From Catajapyx aquilonaris (Eukaryota), in assembly GCA_000934665.2 (NCBI GenBank), contig KZ538490.1, forward strand, positions 62,001-126,000: a DNA stretch of 64,000 nt, in the 5' to 3' direction. Of the stretch, positions 3,978 to 60,439 are shown piece by piece. The notes below the pieces were generated by a model that saw only the letters and a program-made list of their open reading frames with translations, was not told where the DNA came from and made no database searches. The number at the start of each line of letters is the position of its first letter. Within the stretch, counting starts at the first letter, position 1. Both the position numbers and the translations under genes were made by a program.

Positions 3978-4027
3978 NNNNNNNNNNNNNNNNNNNNNNN
4001 NNNNNNNNNNNNNNNNNNNNNNNNNNN
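3978..4027. other. Assembly gap (50 N)
   Basis: Run of N next to a C-rich tract. Confidence 0.99.
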
Positions 4028-25094: not shown

Positions 25095-25105
25095 NNNNNN
25101 NNNNN
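25095..25105. other. Assembly gap (11 N)
   Basis: Run of N within a G-rich tract. Confidence 0.99.
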
Positions 25106-46200: not shown

Positions 46201-47932
46201 GCACACAACCCTCCGGAGGTCGATCAAGGCGTCTGACAAGACTCTGCATGGCACAGCATCCCCATTTACTATCCTGTCTGAACACACACAAAAAAAATTG
46301 CTTTGATACCCTGCTCTCCTCTCCAGGAAAAAAAACAATGTCGCAAGTCACATATGGCAGTACACCTTTTGCCGAAATGATGCCGTTTGGTGTCGGTAAA
46401 AAATGGCGGGCCATATGACATCCACAAGTTCACTTTGGTTCTGGTGGCGTTCCTTTTTGGGGTTGTGTATCGGCAAAGTGATTAAGGTGGGAGGGAAGGA
46501 AGGTTGGTTTTTGGGGGTACGGGCCGGGTCAAATGTCATCATGCACATTGATCTAGCACCTCCCAGGGGCGTGCGATTTGGATCGCTGAGTAGGAAGAGG
46601 GGAGGGGGGGGGGGCTGCCATATTGCACCGCAATTTTTTTTTTCTGGGACGTTCATTTTTTACTGCCATTTGTAACTTATTTTCTCGACGACACATGTTT
46701 TGATTTTATTAGAGGGCTCAAGTTATTCAGTTTGGATCGTCGATATTATCCAAACAGAACACGCGAGGTTACTTCATTTTTATGACTTTTTTAAACTGGG
46801 AAATGAGTATACAATGACGAGATCTCATCTGATTTAAGACGTCATGTTCTGTTTCATAACAACGGAATAAATATTATGAAGAGGTGCTTTGGAATGCTGC
46901 AGGAACTTATTTCATGAGCAAGTACTATGGGCATTTGCTCACCCAAATTATGCACAGGATACGAAAAACATGCATTAGCTATTCGTAATGGCATAGACTT
47001 GAGTCACTTAGTCATTACATGGTATGCCCTTTTCACGATTGCAGTGGAAGTTTGAGCATTGCCATGGTAACTTACTGTTTCTGCCAATCTCGAGTCGGAT
47101 CGCAGTAATTTGCGTGCACACAATACAGTAGGGGGGTTTTTTTTGAGGGGGGGGGGGGGTTAATGCAAGAGAAAAGTAGCGTTAAAAGATTTAAATCTGG
47201 TTCAGGACCTCTTGAAATATTTATCACGCTGAAAGATGCCAATGATATAGAAATGTCCATCATTATTTTACTTTCCATTGTCGTTCAATGCACATGCAGT
47301 GTCATATTCGGTCATATTTTGACCACCTGGGATCTGATTAGACTTTTTTTTTTACAATCACAGTCCGTAACATTGCCTCAGAAGCCGGCTCCGATTACCC
47401 ATCACCCTCTGCTTCATTCCCATTCAATTATGGCATCATCCAACCGCATTGTGCGGGTCGGGGACATGTAGGTGAGATCAAGTGTTAACCGGCTCCTATC
47501 TCAGCTCAGCAATGAAAAGGAAGGGTGGGGGACGATAATACTGATAGGGGGGGAGGGAGGGATGGAGGGAAGGGGAATCTCCCAGAGAGGAGATCCATGC
47601 TTGCCGGGGCTGGAAATGGGCATGGCAGCTGTGACCGACCTCTCGCTTGTGCGGATTCAGGTCATGCCTGCCGATTGAAAGAACCCAATTGGGAGGACGT
47701 GAGCAGAATGGAAGGCATGTCCGGCCTGTCTCGATCCACGTGGGTTTTGCAGCCATAGGACGGAACCCAGTTTTTTTTTTTTTAACTCCCAGAGTTGCGG
47801 ACGTGAATCCAGCACAGATACTTTTGCTGGGACGGGAGCTATCGTGCAATTACAAGTACACTGTGCCACGAAGAGTCCGCAGCAAGGTTTGAAATATTCC
47901 AGATTCTCAACCATTCGTAATGAAATTCAAGG

Positions 47933-48042
47933 CCTGTTTACGCACTCGCGATTTGAGCATCGGTCGCACGACTTTGCGACCGACAAAAATCGGTTCCCTT
48001 AGATCGTGCGACCGATGCTCAAATCGTGAGTGCGTAAACAGG
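47933..48042. repeat. Near-perfect 39-bp inverted repeat with a 32-nt spacer (small MITE or hairpin)
   Basis: CCTGTTTACGCACTCGCGATTTGAGCATCGGTCGCACGA (47933-47971) versus 48004-48042; one mismatch, which would be a G-U pair in + strand RNA. Confidence 0.85.
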
Positions 48043-48585
48043 TTGCTTGTAACAAAACTAAGCGGCCACTGTCCGACCATACTGATCACTAATTGACGTG
48101 CTAGACTCTGTAGTTACACACATCGAAATTATTCAACCTCCAGTAGGCCAGAAAAGCAACGGTGCTAAATTTTACAAGGGCTCGGGAAGTTCCGAGCACA
48201 GCCCATATCATTTCTGTCTTTCTTCGACGTAACCTATGATTTCAGAGCACTTGAGTATCGAAGTTATTACGCTCACACGGCGACGGTAATGACAAGGTAG
48301 TTCCGAAAACTAGGACGCCCAATTGGACTCCCCACCGAATTCTTCATTGTTGGGTTGCTGGTGACGTCATCCGGATGAGGGTGTCATGTGGGATACCGTC
48401 ATGTGTCCCTATGTTGCGGGCTAATGGAAAAGTGAACCCTGGCGCTGTTGCCTGACCGACTCTGCAATTAGATGACCCCTCGGCATTAGTCACTTGAGAT
48501 GTGGCCAGGTTTTGCCTCGGGTTCCCCTCTTGCGTTATGACGGGGGTTTAGTCAAATCCCAACTCCTTTGTCTTACTCAGCTGAC

Positions 48586-48591
48586 TATAAA
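48586..48591 (+). promoter_or_regulatory. Possible TATA box of the nested IR
   Basis: cTATAAAt about 260 nt upstream of the IR ATG; motif match only. Confidence 0.25.
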
Positions 48592-48849
48592 TTGCTCCCA
48601 GGCCGGAGGGAACGAGCCCTGTGTTGAAGAGGGAGGCCCCCCGAAAAAACAAGGAAGGGTGGCCAAAAATGACGTAAAAGGGGGCCAGCCCGATTGTTAT
48701 CAAAAAAAGAAGAAAAAATGATCGGATCGATGCGATTCTTCTTCGGCATGTAATTTGGAGGGCATTAATTATATATTGGGGGGCTGCATGCACAAAGGTG
48801 TCCGTGCGGACTGTTTCTGAAAGGTCTTCAGTGGTGAATCACTTGTACA

Positions 48850-50745
48850 ATGGCGCCCTTGTTGATGTTGCTTCTTGTCCAAAGAGCGGTGTCGCGACCA
48901 GAGAGCGAAATTGTCTCGTTGTTGCGCGACATTTTAGAGTCGTCGCCGTTGTGCACGCTCGTGTTTGCTCATGACTATGCTGCGGTACCGATGCCGTTTC
49001 AGAGTCTGATGGCCAACCTCAGTCGGAGTTACAGGTTCGCGATGCCTGTGAAGTTGCCACGTACGTTCGTCTTGCCAAAAGGACACTACCGCGACTTTTG
49101 GGACATTCACTCTCGGTATGTGGTCGGTCCTTGTGTGGTTCACATGCACACGACCGACACGGCAATGGAACTGGACCGCCTTAATCTGCTGGTGTCAACG
49201 CTGGTCAAGGTGAGCATGGAGGAGGACCGGTTCGTGATCTGGTCCAGATCGGATCCGGATCGTGGCCTGGAACCGAAGAGTCTCCTGATGGCCAAGTTCA
49301 AACTGGCGGTGGTGCCGATGGAGTGTCTGCAGCTGCGAACTTCATGCTTCTTTTGTCAAAACCACATGGTCAGCCTGGGTCCATATCCGGGCTTGAGTGT
49401 GGCCAGCATGTTTCCGGATATGACCACGGACCTGAACGGATATCTTGTCCGATCCGCATATCTGGTGGGGAAAGACTGGAAGACTGTGGGCAAGAAGGTG
49501 CAGGAGCGTGGTCGGCAGTACCTGAGCGTCGACGAAGCTTACATGTACTACTTCGCCATGAAGATGAACTTCACCTGGGTCATGTACGATATGGTAATCA
49601 CGCCGGAAATGCTGGACGGGAGTCGGCTTGAGAATGGGACTTGGGTGGGACAGGTGCAGAACATGATGTCTGACAAGCAAGACTTCGCACTGATCGCGTT
49701 TTACCAGAGTGAGGAACTTCGACATCTGAATTATGTGTTCCCGACAGTGTACGGCGGATTTTACTTCATGACCGATTTTGCCAAGCCGGTTTGGTCCTGG
49801 AAGACAATACTGTGGGCGTATGACATCACCGTGTGGGTGTTGATTGTGGCTGGAACTGCGCTGTCAGTAGTTGTGACCTACGTTCTGCTCAAGATAGAAG
49901 GTTGTGAGCGACAGTCCATAGAGCTGTCTTTTCGTACCTGCGTCGGTACACTAGTGGAACAGCTGCCCAATAAGGAGTTGCCGCAATGCAGCGCATGCCG
50001 CGCTTTCCTCCTGTTTTGGTTCTTCGTGGCCATCGTGATCTCCTGCGGGTACCAGGAGATGGTGTTTGCCTTCGTGGCAGTTCCGGTGAAGGAGCGAATC
50101 CCCACCACATTCGAGGAGCTGCTGGAAATGGACTATGTTATCAACGCTGAAACATTTCAAGCCCTGACTCTGACCGTGCTGGCCAAGAGAGTGGAGGTCG
50201 AAATCTACCGCAAGGTTCAGGAGAGGTTGGAGATCGCCATGGGCTTCAAGCATTGCTTCGAGCAATGTCTAACGGGTCGAGTCAGCTGCCTGGGATTCGG
50301 ACCGTTGATGGACTGCGAGAAACAGCAGATGGTGGACATCAGCGGAAAGATGCGATTAAGGCAAGGGGAGCCTGCTCTGCACATTTACACCGGTAGCGCA
50401 TTTCTGAAAGATAACATGTGCCGGTTGAACGTGGACAATATGGTCAAGCGCATATTCGAGAGCGGTCAAGCGAGACATTGGTGGAGCAACGTCGAGTACG
50501 TCCACTTTCTGGAGGCCATGGCACAAGTACGGAATCGTCAGGAGGTGGATGAAGGAATAGGGGACAACGGAGAAGAAGAAGGCAAGCCGCTGACCATGCA
50601 GAATATGTGCGGGCCGTTCCGATTGATATTGGCAGGATGGCATATCTGCTTGCTGAGCTTCATTGTTGAGGTTTTGGTTAGGATGTCAGGTAGATACTGG
50701 TTAGCCCATCTCTTGCGAAGGAGGCGGACGTGGTTCATGAATTGA
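48850..50745 (+). CDS. Divergent ionotropic receptor (IR, variant iGluR chemoreceptor family), single exon, 631 aa, nested in the onecut intron
   Basis: Uninterrupted 1896-nt ORF with acaATGG start context and a hydrophobic N-terminus (MAPLLMLLLVQRAVS). S1-like NGTWVGQVQNMMSDKQDFAL; M1 WAYDITVWVLIVAGTALSVVVTYVLL; pore-like TCVGTLVEQ; M2 RAFLLFWFFVAIVISCGY followed by IPTTFEEL; S2 end IFESG..RHWW; last helix PLTMQNMCGPFRLILAGWHICLLSFIVE. No long iGluR amino-terminal domain. The orthology group cannot be assigned by eye. Confidence 0.9.
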   Translation: MAPLLMLLLVQRAVSRPESEIVSLLRDILESSPLCTLVFAHDYAAVPMPFQSLMANLSRSYRFAMPVKLPRTFVLPKGHYRDFWDIHSRYVVGPCVVHMHTTDTAMELDRLNLLVSTLVKVSMEEDRFVIWSRSDPDRGLEPKSLLMAKFKLAVVPMECLQLRTSCFFCQNHMVSLGPYPGLSVASMFPDMTTDLNGYLVRSAYLVGKDWKTVGKKVQERGRQYLSVDEAYMYYFAMKMNFTWVMYDMVITPEMLDGSRLENGTWVGQVQNMMSDKQDFALIAFYQSEELRHLNYVFPTVYGGFYFMTDFAKPVWSWKTILWAYDITVWVLIVAGTALSVVVTYVLLKIEGCERQSIELSFRTCVGTLVEQLPNKELPQCSACRAFLLFWFFVAIVISCGYQEMVFAFVAVPVKERIPTTFEELLEMDYVINAETFQALTLTVLAKRVEVEIYRKVQERLEIAMGFKHCFEQCLTGRVSCLGFGPLMDCEKQQMVDISGKMRLRQGEPALHIYTGSAFLKDNMCRLNVDNMVKRIFESGQARHWWSNVEYVHFLEAMAQVRNRQEVDEGIGDNGEEEGKPLTMQNMCGPFRLILAGWHICLLSFIVEVLVRMSGRYWLAHLLRRRRTWFMN

Positions 50746-50764
50746 TCATAATTTTTACAAACAT

Positions 50765-50801
50765 TGGAAATGTGCAAATAAATTTTATGTGCACATTTCC
50801 A
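50765..50801 (+). terminator. Likely polyadenylation signal of the nested IR (AATAAA, 50777-50782) inside a stem-loop
   Basis: AATAAA begins 32 nt after the IR stop codon and is flanked by the perfect 12-bp inverted repeat TGGAAATGTGCA / TGCACATTTCCA. Confidence 0.55.
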
Positions 50802-53237
50802 TATGGGACGGGTACTCGGCAGAAGGCGCAAATGTGGTGCAAACTGAACGGCATGTTACTTATGGACGCAAACTTTGAGGCCTCATGGATAATTTCGAGC
50901 TCTACCTGCCTATTAAGACTGTAAAAATTGACGTCCCTTCGTGCCGGATAATGCATTGTGTGCATGGCAGTATGTTTCTCAGACTCTTGTGGACAAGCTG
51001 TAAAGCTAATCGAAGTTGATATCTTGCTTTCTGGTTTCCGGACTTTTGCTAGCCAAGGAGTGACTGATTGTGTGCAACAGTACAGGAAGATATAGTACGT
51101 GAAACGGCATTTTAGAGCACCGCATGGGGGCTAGCAGGATTGACGCTAATGGTGCAAATCCTTACGTGATGGTTGTCACAACGCATGCACTGCCGACATG
51201 CACGACCGTAAAATGACAGTCCTTTTTTTGAGTCCATTACACTGGCAAAGTTTGCTAGAAAACAGTTCCATGTGTCTGTCTTTGGTATTGCATCAGTAAC
51301 CATGGGGATACCTGTAAGTTTGCATTTGCCTGGGGGTACGTAGATTGATGTTTGAGCGGATCGCATCAGGAATCAATTATTCAGGCAAAACCCGCAAGAA
51401 AATGACGGGTATAGGACTTGAAGTGCTGCCGTCCAAGTTGTCACACTCGCCATCAATTTAATTCGGCCCCCGTGACCTTCGGCGACATTTGGTCTCTCCT
51501 AACCCCAGCCCTATCCATCACATAGATACATGGAGAGAGTCCCCCCTTTCCAATTCCTGCAGCACATCTTCCCCAGATCATCCTGTCACGGTTGGCAATC
51601 GCCCTTCTTCGGGACACCCTATCCCCCTAGGAAAGGCAGGGGTCTGTGTCCATCCTATTAGAGAGGAGGAAGAGGAGGAGGAAGGGAAATAGTGTGAGCT
51701 AGACCAGCTGACGGTGGGTGGCGCTTGCGTGACGCCAGGCTTTTCAAGCCGCGGATGGCGTGAATCATTGCCGGCCCTCCATACCCACCCTATCCTTTCC
51801 TTAGCCCAAGCTGACGGCTGAATTTCCTCCAGAATGTGCTCATGCAAAAAAGGGGGGTGACTATACAACATAAAATGGCAACCCTGCGCAGTGTACGACG
51901 TTGCCGCAATGGGTCTGGGATTTGGGGAATTTGTACACGAATAGCTAAGCATTACACCACTTTTCAGTACCAAAAATGTTATTTCCTCGATAAATTATCG
52001 CGGGTTTAAAATTGGCGGGGAAAAAGGGGGCGTGACGTAAAGGCTCCTGCTTGACCATAGTGACGTCAGAGGGAAATACGATACCGTATAACATTTTTGT
52101 CGCGTACCCCTTTTTAAATATGTCGAGACAGTTTGTACCCCCCACTCCGACTGTCACCAGAAAATAGTAATTGTGGGCACTTATCAACAGTAACAGCAAA
52201 ACGAAAGATGGGAATGTGTGAGTATGACGATTTTATTTTTTTTCTCAGAAGTTGGTGATTCTTGTTGAATAAGAATATGGTTCCCAACAAATGTATAGAG
52301 ACTGGTCGCCATTGCACGATATCTTTAGCGTACCCCCTAAATAGTGTTTGCGTACTCCTGTTTGAAAACCACTGCCGTATAATATGTTTTGGGATCGACC
52401 AAAGCTCGAGAATTTATATTGATACTTATTTCTTCAAACATAAAGACACCAAAATTCATTTAAAAATAAGGACGTTTTTTACATGGGTTTGCAAAATGTA
52501 GGCTATAGGGCCCCCTTTTATTAAGCATGAGCAAATAGGACGACAGGTGTGTTTCCACAGTCCTGTGCACCATTGATCGAGTCACTAAGTTTGCGGAGTC
52601 GGCCAGGTGTGCATCCGGAGACAAATTTGCGAAGTCGCACCCACCCACACTTCAAAACACGGCCGTTGTCCACACATGTAATTCGGGAAAAAATAAGTGC
52701 CGTCATTAGTAAGGACGAGGGGGAGGTCGAAACCTCGAAGTCAGCGGCTTCGATGCATTACACACACAGGACACTCCATCACCTTCTTTGGGGGAGGTGT
52801 TGGGAACCAGAATGAGACAGAGTTGTATCAAGCTCCCAAATCGTAATTGAAATTCCTCCTTTTCCGTCGCCTTCTCCCTCACCCGACCGTCTTGCCTGTT
52901 TCCGGAAAAAGTTTTCCCCACATCATCCGCAACGGCCCCGGCAACACAAAACGTGGTATCGGTCCGGGGTTATTTCCCCCCCATGTCTGCATGGTTGCCA
53001 ATGACAGCCCTTTTCTTATTGGCAGGCGACATATGCTTGAGCGAAAGTTCCCATACATGTGACTCATGAAAATCATACCAATTCGCCCACAATGCATATT
53101 TTTTTTTTGCAGTGTTTTCATGTATAGCACATTGGGCGAATTGCAATATGTGTTGCATGCTAGTTTGTATGTGTATTGTTAAGTGTCGACAATTGAATGA
53201 GCACGTGAGATACATGACGTAGTGTTATGTTTTCCAG

Positions 53238-53350
53238 CCTGCAAGCGGAAGGAGGAGCAGCAGACCCAACCCGAGCATCCGCCGGCCCCCAAGAAGCCCC
53301 GTTTGGTCTTCACAGACCTCCAGCGGCGTACTCTGCAGGCTATTTTTAAG
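53238..53350 (+). CDS. onecut: ONECUT homeobox gene, internal exon encoding the CUT-homeodomain linker and homeodomain helix 1
   Basis: Acceptor tttccag at 53231-53237 and donor AAG|gtaaaa at 53350/53351. The 113 nt equal 2 nt plus 37 codons: (A)CKRKEEQQTQPEHPPAPKKPRLVFTDLQRRTLQAIFK. ACKRKE and PKKPRLVFTDxQRRTL are characteristic ONECUT/HNF6 motifs. Upstream intron is phase 1, downstream intron phase 0. Confidence 0.96.
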
Positions 53351-53733
53351 GTAAAAAGAAAAAAAGACACAGGAAGCAAGTCCCAGCAACAACAACAACC
53401 GCGACCCCAACCAAGTAATGGGATTCCTTCCATTAGTGCGGGAGGAAAAAAGAAAGAAAAAAGAACCGAGCTCTTTCTTTTTTTTATTATTATGATTCTG
53501 TGATGCACGAACACGGTTTGCGTGTAGGGAGCGGGCATTTCCAGAAGATTGACTTCGGAGGTCTCTCTCCCTCGAACAAAAAAAAAAGCGTGGAATGAAT
53601 TCCATACGTATAGGGCAGACAGTGGACAAATTTTTATTACTTTGTGTTCACTTATATTTTTTTTTAGTTATCTTGCTTAATTTTTGAGGGTGGATCCAAG
53701 TTGAATTGCCGCACTCTGTTTTGTCTTATATAG

Positions 53734-53760
53734 TTCTCCCTTTTTTTGCAGCAGGTAAGC
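53734..53760 (+). other. Candidate 3-nt microexon (CAG, 53752-53754) or ratchet point in the homeodomain intron
   Basis: ttctccctttttttgcag|CAG|gtaagc: strong pyrimidine tract, acceptor AG, three nucleotides and a near-consensus donor. Confidence 0.55.
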
Positions 53761-55948
53761 CTAAACATGCAGAAGGGGATATGAGAGAGAGGCTACAAGG
53801 GGACAGCGCCTCAGTGCAAAGCGAGAAGAGATGTTCAAAAGGAGACAGCATTTTTTTAAGAGAGAGAGAAAAAAAATTAAAACTAAAAAAAAAAGTAGAG
53901 TTGAACGTTTGGGCGTTGCTTGCCGAGGCAATTTCAACTAAGTCCAATCATTGAGTGCGTTGGATCGTAAACTTGAAGTCTGCGTATTGTCATATGGACT
54001 TGAGCGTTTTAAAAATATTAATCGGGTCACGTGATTGACAACCCTCTGCAACAAGTTGTCAAATAACTCTTCCAGTTTAACATTATGATTTGAACAAGAT
54101 ATTGGCTCTGATATTACGATATGGCAGCCGATCGATGAATTTATAACGTGTCTGTCGCACATGGCAGAACATGTGCTACCACGTGACGTCATCGATATGA
54201 TTCTTTTGTACGATCAAGCTGTGATTGTGACAGGCTCGGTTTCTGTCAAGTATTTAACTGACCGTTAGCGACGAACCTTGGAATCTAACGTCAACTAGTA
54301 AACACCGCTCAAGTCCAAATGGGACGTGAATTTCAAGCGTTTCTGACTTCAGGCATTCAATATTTTTTTTGATTTTCTAATTATTTTGCCGTGCACTATA
54401 TGATTTTGACGAAGACGCTTTATCTAGGTAGGTGATTTCAGTTCATTTCTTCTCTGTGGAAACCGGGGGAAGCCAAAACCTGGATCCGCCCTGGTATTAA
54501 AAACCCCCCCCATGGTTTTTAACTCGAATCACACCCACCTTCCTGCTATTAATTCGCACATTTTAATTTCCTAAATTCTTTCCGTTCATATTCTTCGTCT
54601 GGTGTGTGGAGGCCATATTATTATTACTATTCTCCCAGCTCATCCGTTAGTCAATCCATCACTATATATATACTCCCCCCCCCCCCACAACCCAGCCCCA
54701 GAATTATGGATGGTAGCCTACCGTGTTCCTGTCGTGTTTTTGCGAGGCTCGTCACATTAACGAGGAGGCTTACAGTTATAATCCCCGGCGAAATTGTTTT
54801 GCACCTTGCCACAAGCACGGGTTACCGAGGACAAAAATCAACCATAATTTTGGGTTGGGTGCGGGGAGGGTTATTCTGCGTATGTGTGTGTGTTCTGGGG
54901 TGGGCTAATCTTTTCATTTGACTTTCTAAATCGAATTCAGAAATGCTGGGACCGGAGGTTAAAATAACCTTTTTGCTGGCCAACCGATCGGATTTTTTTA
55001 TTTTTTTAAAGCGAGAGGACCGATTTTTTTTTTGGTGCGATTTTTTAAAAAGCGATGATTCCAAAGGGACGTGAAAAGTTGTTGGTTGTCCAATTAGGCG
55101 TGGATGGGCTGGGAATTTGTCCCGCCCACGCTTTTTTTTGGGGGGGGGGGGGGNATATCTTCCCCTCACTCCCTAAATTTCAACGAGATTGATTCAGAGG
55201 GATGGTAGCAAGTGTGGGAGATTGAAATATATAATAAAAAAAACACGAGAGGGGGCGATCGGAGAGGAGCCAACTGGGGACCATGTGTGGTAATAACATG
55301 TTCAGTGTGTTAGTATGACGCCCTTGACGGACCCCAGGAATGTTTGGGGAAAAAAGAGGGGCGGCTGTTTTTTTTGTGGAGGGGGCGTCAATGAACTTAC
55401 GTGATCGACCCGGCAGCTTTCTGGGAAAAGTGCGGGTCAAGATTACGAGTATTCGATTCTCTAGTATACTGCACCCACCGGATGTCATCAATAATAGAGA
55501 CACTCGCGATCTAGGGGGAGGCTAAGCGGTTTCTTTGCTATTTTTTTAGCGATGAAGCAGGCGATGGTTGAGGTTGGCCGGTTTTTGAAGGGTTTATTCA
55601 GTTGCGAGGAAAAGGTAATCCTGCATTGTAGGCAACCCAAGGGCATCTCTTGTCTCACCGGTTGCATAAGTGGCAGGGGCAACACCTGAGGGAGGTGGAT
55701 GAAGTTGTGGATTGTTTTCTCCCAGCAACCCACTGGAAGTCATGGCCATGTTAATTGGTGGTGATCGTTGCTTCTTGTTAGGCTGGTTGCTGAGGTAAAC
55801 AATCTATAATTTCTGCTCCCTGGCCTTGGGTAGTGCACTTGTATTGTGCCACTAGTAGTGATGTGTCCTTGGTATCGAAACAGGGGGAATTGGGCATATG
55901 CAGAATGCCATAGTCATACTCATCAGGAGTGAAAACTATGACTCTGAA

Positions 55949-56239
55949 TTAACCTTGGAACAGTGGCGTGACTGAAAGTTACGGCAACCGTGACGTGGGG
56001 TCTTTAAGGACCCCATCCATATTTTAATTTTTATTGATTTTTATATAATACTTTTCAATGTACTGACTATATGCAATCATTCTTTGAACAATGCCTAAAA
56101 TGATCGCTAATTGAATATAAACATCCACTTCCTGTTATATACTTTTAAAAATTGGCTAAAGTTCATTGTAATTATCATTTTAATGCATTTTAATTCCTTT
56201 GGGGTCCTAAAAGACCCCACGGCACGATTCCAGGGTTAA
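55949..56239. mobile_element. piggyBac-like MITE (283 bp between TTAA target sites)
   Basis: TTAA at 55949-55952 and 56236-56239. Termini CCTTGGAACAGTGGCGTG versus reverse-complemented CCCTGGAATCGTGCCGTG (14/18). Subterminal inverted repeats 55989-56015 / 56200-56226 (25/27) are asymmetrically spaced, as in piggyBac ends. Confidence 0.8.
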
Positions 56240-57259
56240 ACAATGAGCATGCTTGAATGATGACAATTTTTGTACTACTGCAGAGTGTTACTCATGACTA
56301 ATAGACATCATAGAAAGATTTCGCTAATCCCTGTATGCAATTCAGCTAGGAGAGTGTAGTAAAAGTTGACGTACCGAAAGTTATTATGACAGTGGTGCCA
56401 GTGATTGCACAAAATCTCTTAGATTACAATTGAAGCAACCGTAAGATTGCAACTTCTTGCCATTTGATATCACAAATAATCATCCAATTATAAATTGTAT
56501 GCTGAATCACATCTTGAAAGGTGGTCATGCGTGATATGAAAGTATTGACCCAGAATATAAAAATCTATCACAAGATACATGCATGCATAAATTAAAAGTG
56601 CAAGTGAATATTTGAGGACTAGGAAAATTACTAAAGATAATATAAACATTGCATCTGACACCTGCCGCAATGCAAGGAATGTGTTCTCTGCAACATGGGT
56701 AAACATGCAAATTGCATGCTGTCACATTGCATAAGAGGACAGCATAAAAGATGAGGTTGTAAGAATACTGTACAGTACCTAGAAGGCAAGTGCAGAGGCA
56801 TATAATTTATGTGCAGCATTTCCTTTCATTTGTCCTCGGTCTAACACCTGCATAAAGTAGTTATAAATAGGAACGTGTGGTATTAAAATTCCACAGCAAG
56901 TTGGCGGGAAGTAATCCTTTCATACAGTCTTGAATACTTCCAACATTTCCATGCCCAATGCTTCCCAATGCTACGTATGCAAAATTTTACTGAGTAAGGA
57001 TGGTTGATTAGTACATTATTGGCTTGGAAAGAATTTAAACCTTATTTGTGTAGTGGCGGAACTCTATTCTGCCATAACTGTTACGTAATGAGACTTTAGG
57101 CCATTATATGCATAGGTCAAATGGAAATAGATAACGTCAATATGAATAATGGTTGCAGTGTAAGAAATCCCTAAGCTATGCTGGATTTTCTTGGAGTGAA
57201 ATTACATTTGCTGTCATTTTTGTCAAGTCTGTAGTCCTGCGCTATGTCTGACCAACTTA

Positions 57260-57390
57260 GGGCCAATTCACATGGCCACTTCTTTTTCCTAAGAGAAGCT
57301 TTAGTATGACCATTCTTTATTGTTATTTAATATTAAATGGAGTTTCTAAAGCCTCCATTAGGAAAAAAAAGTGGCAGTATAAAAGGGCTG
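57260..57390. mobile_element. Degenerate PIF/Harbinger (Tourist)-like MITE, 131 bp
   Basis: About 45-bp imperfect inverted repeats (gccacttctttttcctaagagaagctttag / ctaaagcctccattaggaaaaaaaagtggc), left terminus GGGCC, flanked by TTA and TAA. Confidence 0.55.
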
Positions 57391-57829
57391 TAACAGGACA
57401 GGATAGTGTATATTCATATTTAAATGCGAATATATTTAGAGAAGCTGCTTGCCGTATGGATAACTCATGCTAGTAATTGCTAGATGGTCAGTTTAAAAAA
57501 TATATCCTCGTACTAACTTCAAGATTGTAGGTTTGCTCCTGTGCAAAGTAGATACATGAGTGTGATTCCTGTTTCACAATTTATATGTTTAAAAATACCA
57601 GTATTTATTTATTTTTCTAATACCTTTCAACCACATTGTCGCTTTGCAAGTAGCAGTTGTAGTATTGGATAACATGGAATATACAAATATTAACTGAGAT
57701 TGTACAGAAGTAGCTTCTTGTCAGTAGTGAGAGGCTAAACACCATTGTTAAATAGCAGACACTGTTTCTTCCCTCACTGACTTTTTTTCCAATTCCCCCT
57801 TGTACTCATGACCACCTTCTTCCTCGCAG

Positions 57830-58201
57830 GAGACGAAGCGGCCATCGAAAGAGATGCAGGTGACCATTGCCCGCCAGCTGGGCCTGGAACCCACCACAGT
57901 GGGCAACTTCTTCATGAACGCCCGGCGGCGGTCAATGGACAAATGGAAAGACGAGGTGGAGAGTCCCGGCAAGAGCACCCCAACACCATCAAGCGGAGCC
58001 CCAGCAACCCCAACCACCCCCACCCCAGCACCCCAGACCCCATCCACGGTGGTCACCCAGGTGGTCACGCAGGTGGTCACCCAGGTGAGCCCAGTGGTGG
58101 CCCACGCCCATCCTCAGCAGCAACAGCAGCACCAGCAACACCAACAGCAACACCAGCAGGTTGTGGCTCAGCCCCAGGTGCACACCACAGACGCGTTGTG
58201 A
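57830..58201 (+). CDS. onecut: ONECUT homeobox gene, terminal coding exon (homeodomain helices 2-3 and a low-complexity P/T/Q/H tail)
   Basis: Acceptor ccttcttcctcgcag ends at 57829. The exon reads ETKRPSKEMQVTIARQLGLEPTTVGNFFMNARRRSMDKW, in frame with the previous exon. NFFMNARRR carries F48 and M50, diagnostic of ONECUT homeodomains. Stop TGA at 58199-58201. Confidence 0.96.
   Translation, partial: ETKRPSKEMQVTIARQLGLEPTTVGNFFMNARRRSMDKWKDEVESPGKSTPTPSSGAPATPTTPTPAPQTPSTVVTQVVTQVVTQVSPVVAHAHPQQQQQHQQHQQQHQQVVAQPQVHTTDAL
58049..58084 (+). repeat. Coding 12-bp tandem repeat (VVTQ x3) in the onecut C-terminus
   Basis: gtggtcacccag gtggtcacgcag gtggtcacccag. Confidence 0.9.
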
Positions 58202-58972
58202 CGCTATGCCACATTCGCCCCTCCGCACCCCCCGGCCCCCCCACCCCCTCCGCACCCATCAGCCCCTCTGGACCAGTATGCTGCAAACAGCTACTTGGTC
58301 TTGAACTGATCAAAAAAATACAAAAAAACACAAAAAAATTTCACCACCAGAGCCCCAGGTTAACGAGGAAGGACCTCCCTCTTGGTTGTCTTAAGTGTCA
58401 TTCTCGTGATCATCCCGTGCTGATTGTTGAAAGAGAGAGTGAGAGAGAGAGCGATAGAGAGGGAGAGTCTACCGATACCACAAACAATCTCTGATTGTTG
58501 ATGAAAAGCAATTTTGGTTGGTGAGGGACCACCGTCGAGTGGGTGCATTTATGCAAGCAAGGCATCGTTGAGATTAGGGTGGCAGGTACTGGATAGCTAC
58601 ATCAACACCAGAGAGTCATATGCAAAAGTGACGAGGAGCAGTGGAAGGAATAAAAGTTTAAATAAATGAGAGAGAACAAGAGCAGGGTGGGTGGGTACTG
58701 ACAAAGAACTAAACACGTGAGAACATTTCCCTTATTTATTTTCACAGAGGCACGTGAAAGAGTGGCAGTCATTCTCATCTCAGGGGGTATCCGTGTGAAG
58801 AAAGGGCGTGATACGTACTTAAAATGTATACATAAGCAATCATATTCAACAGCCACAAGGAAGCACAGAGGGTTCAGTCGCTGGATATGCAAGGTGCAAG
58901 CAAAATGCACCATGTCTGATATTGTATGTCACCTCTGAAGCGGACCATTGTAATTGCACATGAATGATATTC

Positions 58973-60372: not shown

Positions 60373-60439
60373 CACATGTAATTATTACTTCACTTAACAA
60401 TTCCATACACATGTAATAATAACTTCACTTAACAATTCC
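60373..60439. repeat. Tandem duplication, 35-bp period, two copies
   Basis: cacatgtaattattacttcacttaacaattcc at 60373 and cacatgtaataataacttcacttaacaattcc at 60408. Confidence 0.9.

Follow-up and report, generated by a model that had tools for sequence, protein, structure and literature searches.

A divergent single-exon IR gene of Catajapyx aquilonaris, most probably nested on the sense strand of a long onecut intron

IRs are subunits of ligand-gated cation channels that belong to the iGluR family, lack a large amino-terminal domain and are typically around 600-650 amino acids long. The residues that contact glutamate in the iGluRs, an Arg in S1 and a Thr and an Asp/Glu in S2, are not all conserved in IRs, which are expressed in chemosensory neurons together with the co-receptors IR25a, IR8a or IR76b. 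In proteins of the Onecut class, a divergent homeodomain comes after a single CUT domain. The divergent IRs of Drosophila have been described as lineage-specific, fast-evolving iGluR variants without an amino-terminal domain, most of them encoded by a single exon, which was ascribed to retroposition; as a class (sensu Croset 2010), divergent IRs have a single coding exon and are lineage-specific and non-orthologous to the conserved antennal IRs (PMC2924276, in the excerpts drawn on here, as for the other papers cited). An earlier reading of this stretch of DNA (hereafter the sequence-only reading) had described divergent IRs as often single-exon, with retroposition as the proposed cause, and this agrees with that source as far as Drosophila is concerned. 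In the dipluran Campodea augens, 2,424 IRs were reported, mostly intronless and including many singletons that are located far from paralogues, within a genome that has very long introns (PMC6938034). Finally, around 63% of those human genes that are nested lie on the strand opposite to the host, around 37% are co-oriented with it and 41% are single-exon (cited in PMC3192792), which bears out the earlier remark that nested genes are more often antisense to their host.

The window analyzed here comprises 64,000 nucleotides of C. aquilonaris contig KZ538490.1 and its features are collected in Table 1. By far the longest ORF in the window is an uninterrupted frame of 631 codons that encodes the IR. 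An in-frame stop (48835-48837) precedes its ATG by 12 nt, and the resulting stop-to-stop frame, which begins at 48838, counts 635 codons, compared to 237 for the second-longest frame in the window and to a mean of 178 (maximum 276) for the longest frame in 50 block shuffles. The GC content at codon positions 1, 2 and 3 is 0.536, 0.369 and 0.683, respectively, a strong periodicity that is the pattern expected of real coding sequence. Within the window a tblastn search returned only the IR itself (next best match E 0.36), in keeping with the original observation that there is no paralogue in the window.

Table 1. Features of the window (nucleotide positions) and predicted layout of the IR protein (residue positions)
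Feature	Position	Strand	Remarks
Putative large onecut intron	1-48849	+	Both strands without recognisable coding sequence; G+T excess
TATATAT, candidate core-promoter motif	48771-48777	+	From sequence reading alone
TCAGT, candidate initiator-like motif	48828-48832	+	20 nt 5' of the IR ATG; from sequence reading alone
IR ORF (P0001)	48850-50745	+	ATG at 48850, TGA at 50743-50745; single exon, 631 aa
AATAAA poly(A) signal	50777-50782	+	31 nt 3' of the IR stop codon
Onecut exon A	53238-53350 (113 nt)	+	CUT-homeodomain linker and first ~19 homeodomain residues (...KKPRLVFTDLQRRTLQAIFK)
Onecut exon B, last coding exon	57830-58201	+	Remaining homeodomain; stop TGA at 58199-58201
IR protein, N-terminal part (predicted)			Signal-like N-terminus; N-terminal domain of ~180 aa, including four cysteines conserved in the family
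IR protein, lobes (predicted)	S1 ~190-315; S2 ~415-565
IR protein, channel (predicted)	M1 328-346; pore loop ~357-372; M3 382-400; M4 588-610

The encoded protein is, by its sequence and predicted fold, an IR-type member of the iGluR family. The profile search that the sequence-only reading had proposed (Lig_chan, PF00060) yielded an end-to-end match (E 5.7e-6; residues 327-596, profile positions 3-145 of 146), but with 26.6 bits it falls short of the curated cutoff of 30.8; the Lig_chan-Glu_bd profile gave no match at E<=1. A HMMER search of 1.84 billion representatives recovered 641 relatives with E values of 1e-3 or less, the best being 2.1e-47. All ten relatives that were scanned contained Lig_chan (E<=0.001), and in nine the score exceeded the curated cutoff. 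A phmmer search of the PDB retrieved GluD2, GluD1, NR1 and kainate receptors over S1 and M1-M3, the segment that aligns to residues 399-640 of GluD2, and in the protein atlas the IR was placed among arthropod IR clusters at 0.98. The AF2 model (pLDDT 79.7, pTM 0.70) shows the helices in iGluR order, and the same order is followed by the three hydrophobic TM segments and the pore loop. Among the Foldseek matches listed for this model there were iGluR chains only (best E 5.7e-20), with GluK2, GluD1, GluD2, GluA2 and NMDA chains on top (E 1e-17 to 6e-20). The homology to S1 begins near residue 180-190, there is no large amino-terminal domain, and the relatives are similar in length. Furthermore, all six family-conserved cysteines (C35, C95, C166, C169, C469 and C480), the invariant G267 and W329, the W/G/P landmarks and two motifs, NGTW.G and, where S2 begins, PxTFxEL, have been kept. 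The intact, intronless IR ORF of 631 aa that had been claimed stands.

In the database, the IR is matched best (E 2e-47 to 2.5e-28) by IR-like proteins of springtails, such as CAL8103760.1 (P0002) and CAL8097689.1 (P0008) of Orchesella dallaii and CAG7832531.1 (P0009) of Allacma fusca; all eight organism-named entries among the best 20 of the 641 relatives are from springtails. These proteins measure ~570-680 aa per unit, contain Lig_chan, accompanied or not by Lig_chan-Glu_bd, and can be aligned nearly end to end (for instance residues 18-613 of the IR with 23-632 of P0008), yet the identity is just 20-25% and the IR has a Glu where they have the ligand-binding Arg. The vertebrate receptors GluD2 (6lu9/9nwo), GluK2 (8fwq) and GluA2 (7rza) share the predicted clamshell and M1-pore-M3-M4 fold, whereas the IR is only 10-16% identical to them, lacks their ~400-aa amino-terminal domain and carries CGYQEMVFAF in M3 instead of the family consensus. 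With the divergent IRs of Drosophila it has the single exon in common, as the ORF spans the full length of the relatives; it likewise lacks the amino-terminal domain and appears to evolve fast. The similarity to Campodea augens concerns the gene arrangement: an intronless, dispersed singleton in a long-intron genome, set beside what the cited excerpts give for that species. To same-strand nested genes, the IR would compare in its single exon, its long host intron and its co-orientation, if it is indeed nested.

The immediate flanks suggest a gene that has a start context and a poly(A) signal of its own and is transcribed autonomously. The start codon is found in the context acaATGg, downstream of two candidate promoter elements of which the TCAGT is presumably an arthropod initiator-like motif. 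AG dinucleotides also occur just 5' of the ATG. On the 3' side, the AATAAA is embedded in a palindrome (50765-50801; 18-nt arms) with a fold of -20 kcal/mol (z -5.8). Scans of the window for Rfam families, tRNAs and tandem repeats gave nothing relevant, and a scan for promoters and terminators, the model of which is bacterial and unsuited to a eukaryote, stayed at chance level. Translation of the IR from a chimeric onecut-IR mRNA was considered and rejected, since the in-frame stop just ahead of the ATG and a long upstream onecut ORF would make the IR a poorly translatable downstream cistron. Retrogenes are characterized by a 3' poly(A) remnant and flanking target-site duplications, although in old ones these may have decayed. 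No A-tract follows the AATAAA of the IR and no direct repeats flank the gene; the region 47000-52500 has only pairs of 16-21 nt elsewhere, at chance level. The retroposition that was proposed for the Drosophila genes has thus left no scar at this locus, and the suggestion that the IR arrived here in that way finds no backing in its flanks.

Two onecut exons were recognized in the window, both located 3' of the IR. Exon A has a good acceptor (ttttccag/CC, phase 1) and donor (AAG/gt, phase 0), starts inside the linker between CUT domain and homeodomain, and has no in-frame ATG. It shares the strand of the IR and starts 2,492 nt 3' of the IR stop, so that the co-orientation and the distance of 2.5 kb claimed in the sequence-only reading hold, the acceptor fixing the exon start at the position given there. 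Exon B matches the Pfam Homeodomain (E 2.5e-5, profile positions 20-54) and continues into a tail that contains a VVTQ repeat as well as a Q/H-rich stretch. The identity to onecut proteins is 68-92% for exon A and 73-98% for exon B, and the onecut proteins compared all carry a CUT domain upstream of the match to exon A. In the full-length proteins this domain ends 12-54 residues before the start of the exon A alignment, which implies that upstream exons must exist.

Where these exons are is less obvious: no CUT-domain exon is present on either strand of the 53 kb upstream of exon A and no onecut exon 5' of the IR within the window. The Pfam scan covered 300 plus-strand frames of >=45 aa (excluding five that span N, seven within the ORF of the IR, and 57781-58491). 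On the minus strand it covered 124 out of 136 frames of >=75 aa (the other 12 overlap with the IR or with onecut exons), and downstream of exon B a further 24 plus-strand frames. It returned the homeodomain and otherwise only four chance matches below the curated cutoffs (DUF6823, MobI, DUF6677 and Prot_inhib_II). Strand skew is known from mammalian work as a mark of transcription. The G+T excess of the plus strand is 0.060 in 1-48849 and 0.054 in the proven onecut intron (53351-57829), and it is positive in 40 of the 48 upstream 1-kb bins (p 3e-9); the skew of the upstream DNA does not differ significantly from that of the downstream DNA (p 0.16, with only five downstream bins). Given the acceptor, phase and missing ATG of exon A, and an upstream G+T excess like that of the proven intron, nesting is a reasonable reading, and we infer that the IR most probably lies on the sense strand of a onecut intron of more than 53 kb. 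Of the earlier claim of a nested gene, strand and proximity are settled, whereas the intron itself, with 53 kb lacking a CUT exon, is a matter of probability.

The alternative that holds up best, although we regard it as rather unlikely, makes the IR an intergenic neighbour of onecut, either because exons A and B derive from a transcript that starts 3' of the IR (a CUT-less isoform or a partial onecut duplicate) or because of a misjoined scaffold. It could account for the absence of the CUT domain, and two runs of N upstream of the IR (50 bases at 3978-4027 and 11 bases at 25095-25105) mean that contiguity with sequence further upstream rests on scaffolding. A CUT-less transcript with a start 3' of the IR is possible, as the interval 50746-53237 between the IR and exon A holds 13 candidate ATG...G/GT mini-exons of compatible phase, and homeodomain-only onecut models are found in the database entries of Folsomia, Tigriopus and Darwinula. 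Such models, however, may most simply represent annotations broken by the same long intron. It also speaks against this alternative that exon A begins in the middle of the linker behind a good acceptor and without an ATG, that both exons closely resemble proteins of which those matching exon A all have the CUT domain, and that the 48.8 kb upstream contain no other gene and show the strand asymmetry of the proven intron.

A second alternative, which we consider improbable, holds that the IR was captured by the regulatory landscape of onecut, through shared intronic enhancers or direct activation by Onecut, and that the sense position has consequences such as interference or mutually exclusive use. 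The site ATCGAT, which we take to be the Onecut core site, occurs once upstream of the IR, at 48726, 124 nt before the ATG. Location on the same strand at 2.5 kb from a onecut exon would fit as well, and so would literature on both partners: Onecut is needed for the expression of many ORs in adult olfactory neurons of Drosophila, as the sequence-only reading had correctly stated (PMC3302810), and retrogene-like IRs are stated by Croset et al. to gain expression from flanking sequence (PMC2924276). On the other hand, the Drosophila result concerns ORs instead of IRs and a distant taxon, and the window holds no excess of ATCGAT (15 found versus 11.6 expected; 22 of 100 shuffles reach 15), which speaks against the special link to onecut by enhancer capture or co-regulation that had been envisaged. 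Neither does the proposed conflict between 3'-end formation of the IR and elongation of onecut stand out, considering that there are already 59 canonical poly(A) hexamers on the plus strand of the putative intron (31 AATAAA and 28 ATTAAA), next to which the IR poses no unusual difficulty for termination. Enhancer capture, co-expression of IR and onecut, and processing from the host pre-mRNA are speculation; the position of the IR shows no sign of a special link, and coupling between the two appears to be absent. Very unlikely in our opinion is the most far-reaching version, in which an IR that lost the ligand-binding Arg retained by its springtail-type relatives has become a host-dependent guest on the sense strand of a onecut intron exceeding 53 kb, its expression being turned on by the neuronal enhancers of onecut or by the Onecut protein. 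If true, a chemoreceptor and a transcription factor specifying receptor choice would be regulated as a single unit, and polyadenylation at the IR site would be in competition with finishing the onecut mRNA.

As to the receptor itself, it is, on sequence comparison, a very divergent IR on an extremely long branch. Its identity to any of the relatives among the 1.84 billion representatives is at most 25%, and an orthologue was not found in that HMMER search. In a tree of 119 rows, built without named antennal IR references, the terminal branch of the IR is the longest (2.03 substitutions per site, median 0.74). It matches 53 of 101 family consensus columns, below all 43 relatives (57-94), and its amino-acid composition is atypical. 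The near-invariant S1 Arg column (R in 95% of the 43 relatives) is occupied by E289, with R291 two residues on, and the M3 consensus TAYxSK has become CGYQEM. Because Glu replaces the conserved ligand-binding arginine, the ligand is probably not an alpha-amino acid. A word-indexed homology search with the IR returned zero relatives (when queried with the 44-row family alignment it yielded plant GLRs only, which is uninformative), and a metagenome locus search gave eight pattern matches and no relatives. The same kind of search with the relative P0019 gave one locus, contig L001, which carries two tandem, uninterrupted full-length paralogues of P0019, so that intronless genes occur among the relatives too; no onecut sequence was found on that contig. 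The low consensus match and the long branch fit a fast-evolving receptor and also relaxed constraint, although an open frame would seem incompatible with that much neutral change. A third alternative sees in the ORF a relic, either decaying or neofunctionalised, an IR copy under relaxed constraint that is still open by chance and lacks a chemosensory function. This would agree with these deviations and with the 37% of pseudogenes among the Campodea IRs (PMC6938034), but is hardly probable in view of 631 codons without stop or frameshift, the GC periodicity, the retained cysteines, W/G/P landmarks and TM order, and the confident fold prediction.

We therefore regard as fairly probable, and as a whole, that the IR gene is functional or very recently functional and not a chance ORF, and that it represents an autonomous single-exon divergent IR that is nested in a onecut intron without functional coupling. 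The gene would then encode a lineage-specific subunit that, by analogy with characterised IRs, may pair in a limited number of chemosensory neurons with a co-receptor of broad expression. It would be situated on the sense strand, between the CUT-domain exon(s) and the first homeodomain exon, as a by-product of the dispersal of intronless IRs in long-intron genomes. With many dispersed intronless IRs and long introns, chance suffices and the placement requires no special cause, which weighs against regulatory capture as well; nor is the co-orientation unusual, since about a third of nested genes share the orientation of their host.

That early-branching hexapods have intronless, dispersed, singleton IRs is already known. 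The present locus adds one orphan intronless IR to this huge, dispersed and fast-evolving family, and one probable same-strand nested gene. It also has value for annotation: the IR looks unannotated, scores below the Pfam cutoff and leaves a word-indexed search empty, and the putative onecut intron of more than 53 kb would likely break automatic gene models. Only if co-regulation of the two genes were demonstrated would the locus be relevant to the question of how neuron-specific expression of chemoreceptor genes arises.

The gene for the ionotropic receptor (IR) consists of an open reading frame of 631 codons, and since a stop codon is found in the same frame 12 nt 5' of the ATG at 48850, the latter is the sole possible start. 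From stop to stop the frame measured 635 codons, with 237 codons for the runner-up (133 window frames reached at least 90 amino acids); over 50 block shuffles that kept the composition, the longest frame had a mean of 178 codons and a maximum of 276. Given these lengths and the GC content at codon positions 1, 2 and 3 (0.536, 0.369 and 0.683, respectively), this is a genuine coding frame rather than a chance one, and intact, as the sequence-only reading had it.

A PFAM scan of the encoded protein, P0001, recovered a single family, Lig_chan (residues 327-596 versus profile positions 3-145 of 146; E 5.7e-6), though the match, at 26.6 bits, fell short of the curated cutoff (30.8). The best sequence matches in the PDB were GluD2, GluD1, NR1 and kainate receptors (E 2.8e-4 and weaker), covering the S1 lobe and M1-M3. 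A word-indexed homology search found no relative of P0001. An exhaustive HMMER search of 1.84 billion representatives yielded 641 relatives with E of at most 1e-3 (153 at 1e-10 or below, 5 at 1e-30 or below; best 2.1e-47), at an identity of only 18-30%. Lig_chan was present in all ten top relatives scanned (E of at most 0.001), in nine above the cutoff, and Lig_chan-Glu_bd in four. The 20 top matches that were looked up comprised five proteins of Orchesella dallaii and three of Allacma fusca (both springtails), two 'hypothetical proteins' and ten assembly proteins; in the protein atlas P0001 fell among arthropod IR clusters (0.98). An AlphaFold2 model, built on an alignment of 44 rows (P0001 and 43 relatives), had a mean pLDDT of 79.7 and a pTM of 0.70. 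The Foldseek PDB matches listed for it were all iGluR chains (GluK2 at 5.7e-20, GluD1, GluD2, GluA2, NMDA), including LBD-TMD chains devoid of an ATD, with target-normalised TM-scores of 0.55-0.67. The segment order of iGluRs, S1-M1-P-M3-S2-M4, is also that of P0001, with hydrophobic segments at 328-346, 382-400 and 588-610 and a helix for the pore loop at 357-368. The amino-terminal domain of synaptic iGluRs takes up roughly 400 residues, for which a protein of 631 residues is too short. Because profile, HMMER search, fold, transmembrane order and length agree, P0001 is a variant iGluR of the IR type, as had been proposed.

The protein has diverged strongly. Its identity to the 43 aligned relatives was 16-21%, and it fitted the consensus in 53 of the 101 columns with a consensus of at least 60% among these relatives, versus 57-94 for the relatives themselves, a comparison that favours the latter, from which the consensus was derived. 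In a FastTree phylogeny of 119 rows its terminal branch was the longest (2.03, median 0.74) and its amino-acid composition was atypical, which makes the exact placement unreliable. All six conserved cysteines, the NGTW.G motif, W317/W329, P412/P418 and the PxTFxEL sequence at the start of S2 are retained. The S1 arginine of iGluRs binds the alpha-carboxylate of the ligand; P0001 has Glu289 in this column (Arg in 95% of the relatives) and an arginine, Arg291, two residues further on. The M3 motif reads CGYQEMVFAF versus TAYxSKLVxxL in the family. So long a branch without loss of the open frame or of the structural landmarks speaks for selection acting on the protein, and the changed pocket suggests that its ligand may differ from that of the relatives.

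The single frame aligned with full-length relatives over nearly the whole length of both, for instance residues 18-613 with 23-632 of P0008 (the O. dallaii IR-like protein CAL8097689.1); the coding region is therefore intronless, as claimed. Relatives are likewise intronless, several having been called as whole frames on metagenome or assembly contigs. On one metagenome contig, L001 (GC 36%), two paralogues lie in tandem that share 56.5% identity, each of them about 22% identical to the IR of the window; elsewhere in the window, neither a paralogue nor a fragment of the IR was found (next tblastn match E 0.36). As read from motifs only, the ATG lies in a good start context and is preceded by strings resembling a TATA box and an initiator. 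Retroposition had been invoked for single-exon divergent IRs in general, but an A-tract past the poly(A) signal and direct repeats flanking the gene are both absent, so that the locus shows no trace of it. About 800 nt 5' of the start lies a long, near-perfect hairpin (−90.5 kcal/mol when folded as RNA, z −16), no second copy of whose arm occurs in the window; it may represent a hairpin-RNA locus or else a small element of the foldback or MITE-like type.

Features of the window and of contig L001
Feature	Position	Strand	Remarks
IR gene	48850-50745	+	ATG to TGA
Palindrome, 18-nt arms	50765-50801		directly after IR stop; encloses AATAAA; −20 kcal/mol, z −5.8
AATAAA	starts 50777	+	31 nt past IR stop; candidate poly(A) signal
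Hairpin	47925-48050		39-nt arms 47933-47971 and 48004-48042, 97% complementary, with extensions
Onecut exon A	53238-53350	+	acceptor ttttccag/CC, donor AAG/gtaaaa
Onecut exon B	57830-58201	+	acceptor ctcgcag/GAG; ends at TGA
Tandem repeat	60373-60439		35-nt unit, 1.9 copies; only one in window scoring at least 80
N run, 50 bases	3978-4027		looks like scaffolding placeholder; true size not fixed by run length
N run, 11 bases	25095-25105		assembly gap or ambiguous bases
Single N	613, 33406, 35976, 38272, 44865, 55154		assembly gaps or ambiguous bases
IR paralogue 1	L001 1161-3068	same as paralogue 2	uninterrupted, tandem
IR paralogue 2	L001 4065-5927	same as paralogue 1	uninterrupted, tandem

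In a tblastn search with 12 onecut proteins exactly two places of the window were matched, 53237/53240-53350 (identity 68-92%) and 57827 to about 58000 (60-98%), the remaining matches having E of at least 0.24. The two exons join in phase 0 within the homeodomain, and exon B matches positions 20-54 of the PFAM Homeodomain profile. Exon A starts in phase 1, has no in-frame ATG past the preceding stop and aligns with the linker from 12-54 residues past the CUT domain of full-length onecut proteins; onecut must therefore have coding exons upstream of it. The C-terminal tail (57940-58198) contains three VVTQ repeats and, ahead of the stop codon, a stretch rich in Q and H (QQQQQHQQHQQQHQQ). Three onecut-named or onecut-like models of Tigriopus, Folsomia and Darwinula (P0155, P0159 and P0169) have a homeodomain and lack a CUT domain, possibly because the same long-intron problem broke annotation in these other arthropod assemblies.

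The sequence-only reading placed the IR on the same strand inside a onecut intron. The shared orientation and the need for 5' exons stood, but a host exon 5' of the IR was not seen in the window: CUT-domain sequence was absent both in six-frame tblastn with onecut proteins and in a PFAM scan of 300 plus-strand frames of at least 45 amino acids. Another recognizable gene was not found among 124 minus-strand and 24 downstream plus-strand frames (four chance matches, all below curated cutoffs), nor were Rfam families or tRNAs in scans of the window. Thus, apart from the IR itself, the DNA that precedes exon A is free of recognizable genes for at least 53 kb, and no N occurs from the IR to that exon. 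On the plus strand an excess of G over C and T over A is sustained across 1-58000; GC skew was positive in 27 of 32 2-kb bins. Over 1-48849 the G+T excess was 0.060, with 40 of the 48 1-kb bins positive (p 3e-9 versus zero); the proven onecut intron (53351-57829) had 0.054, and the DNA past the onecut stop codon 0.011. The contrast between upstream and downstream was not significant (p 0.16, only 5 downstream bins). In mammals, and perhaps in arthropods too, an asymmetry of this kind is a mark of the transcribed strand; the one seen here is compatible with a single long plus-strand transcription unit that spans the IR. Against nesting counts that the sequence from the IR to exon A offers 13 possible ATG...G/GT mini-exons of compatible phase. 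On balance, we consider it likely that the IR is nested in a onecut intron.

The background invoked for such nesting holds as far as the sources go. According to the introduction of PMC3192792, nested human genes lie antisense to their host in about 63% of cases and have a single exon in 41%, so that roughly a third are co-oriented with it. Divergent Drosophila IRs are described as mostly single-exon (PMC2924276); for the dipluran Campodea 2,424 IRs are reported, mostly intronless and many of them singletons, with long introns making up 27% of the assembly (PMC6938034). Onecut is among seven transcription factors given as needed for OR expression in Drosophila, which concerns ORs in a fly (PMC3302810).

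The putative host intron already holds 31 AATAAA and 28 ATTAAA hexamers on its sense strand, so the IR poly(A) signal is no unusual obstacle to onecut elongation, and the supposed conflict with IR 3'-end formation is not supported. Nor is a special onecut-IR coupling: ATCGAT, which we take to be the Onecut core, occurs once 124 nt 5' of the IR ATG and is not enriched in the window (15 copies, 11.6 expected), and no pointer to coupling was found. Chance insertion of a dispersing intronless gene into a very large intron is sufficient to explain the position. The gene is a new and very divergent IR, of a family and in a type of arrangement that are both already known.
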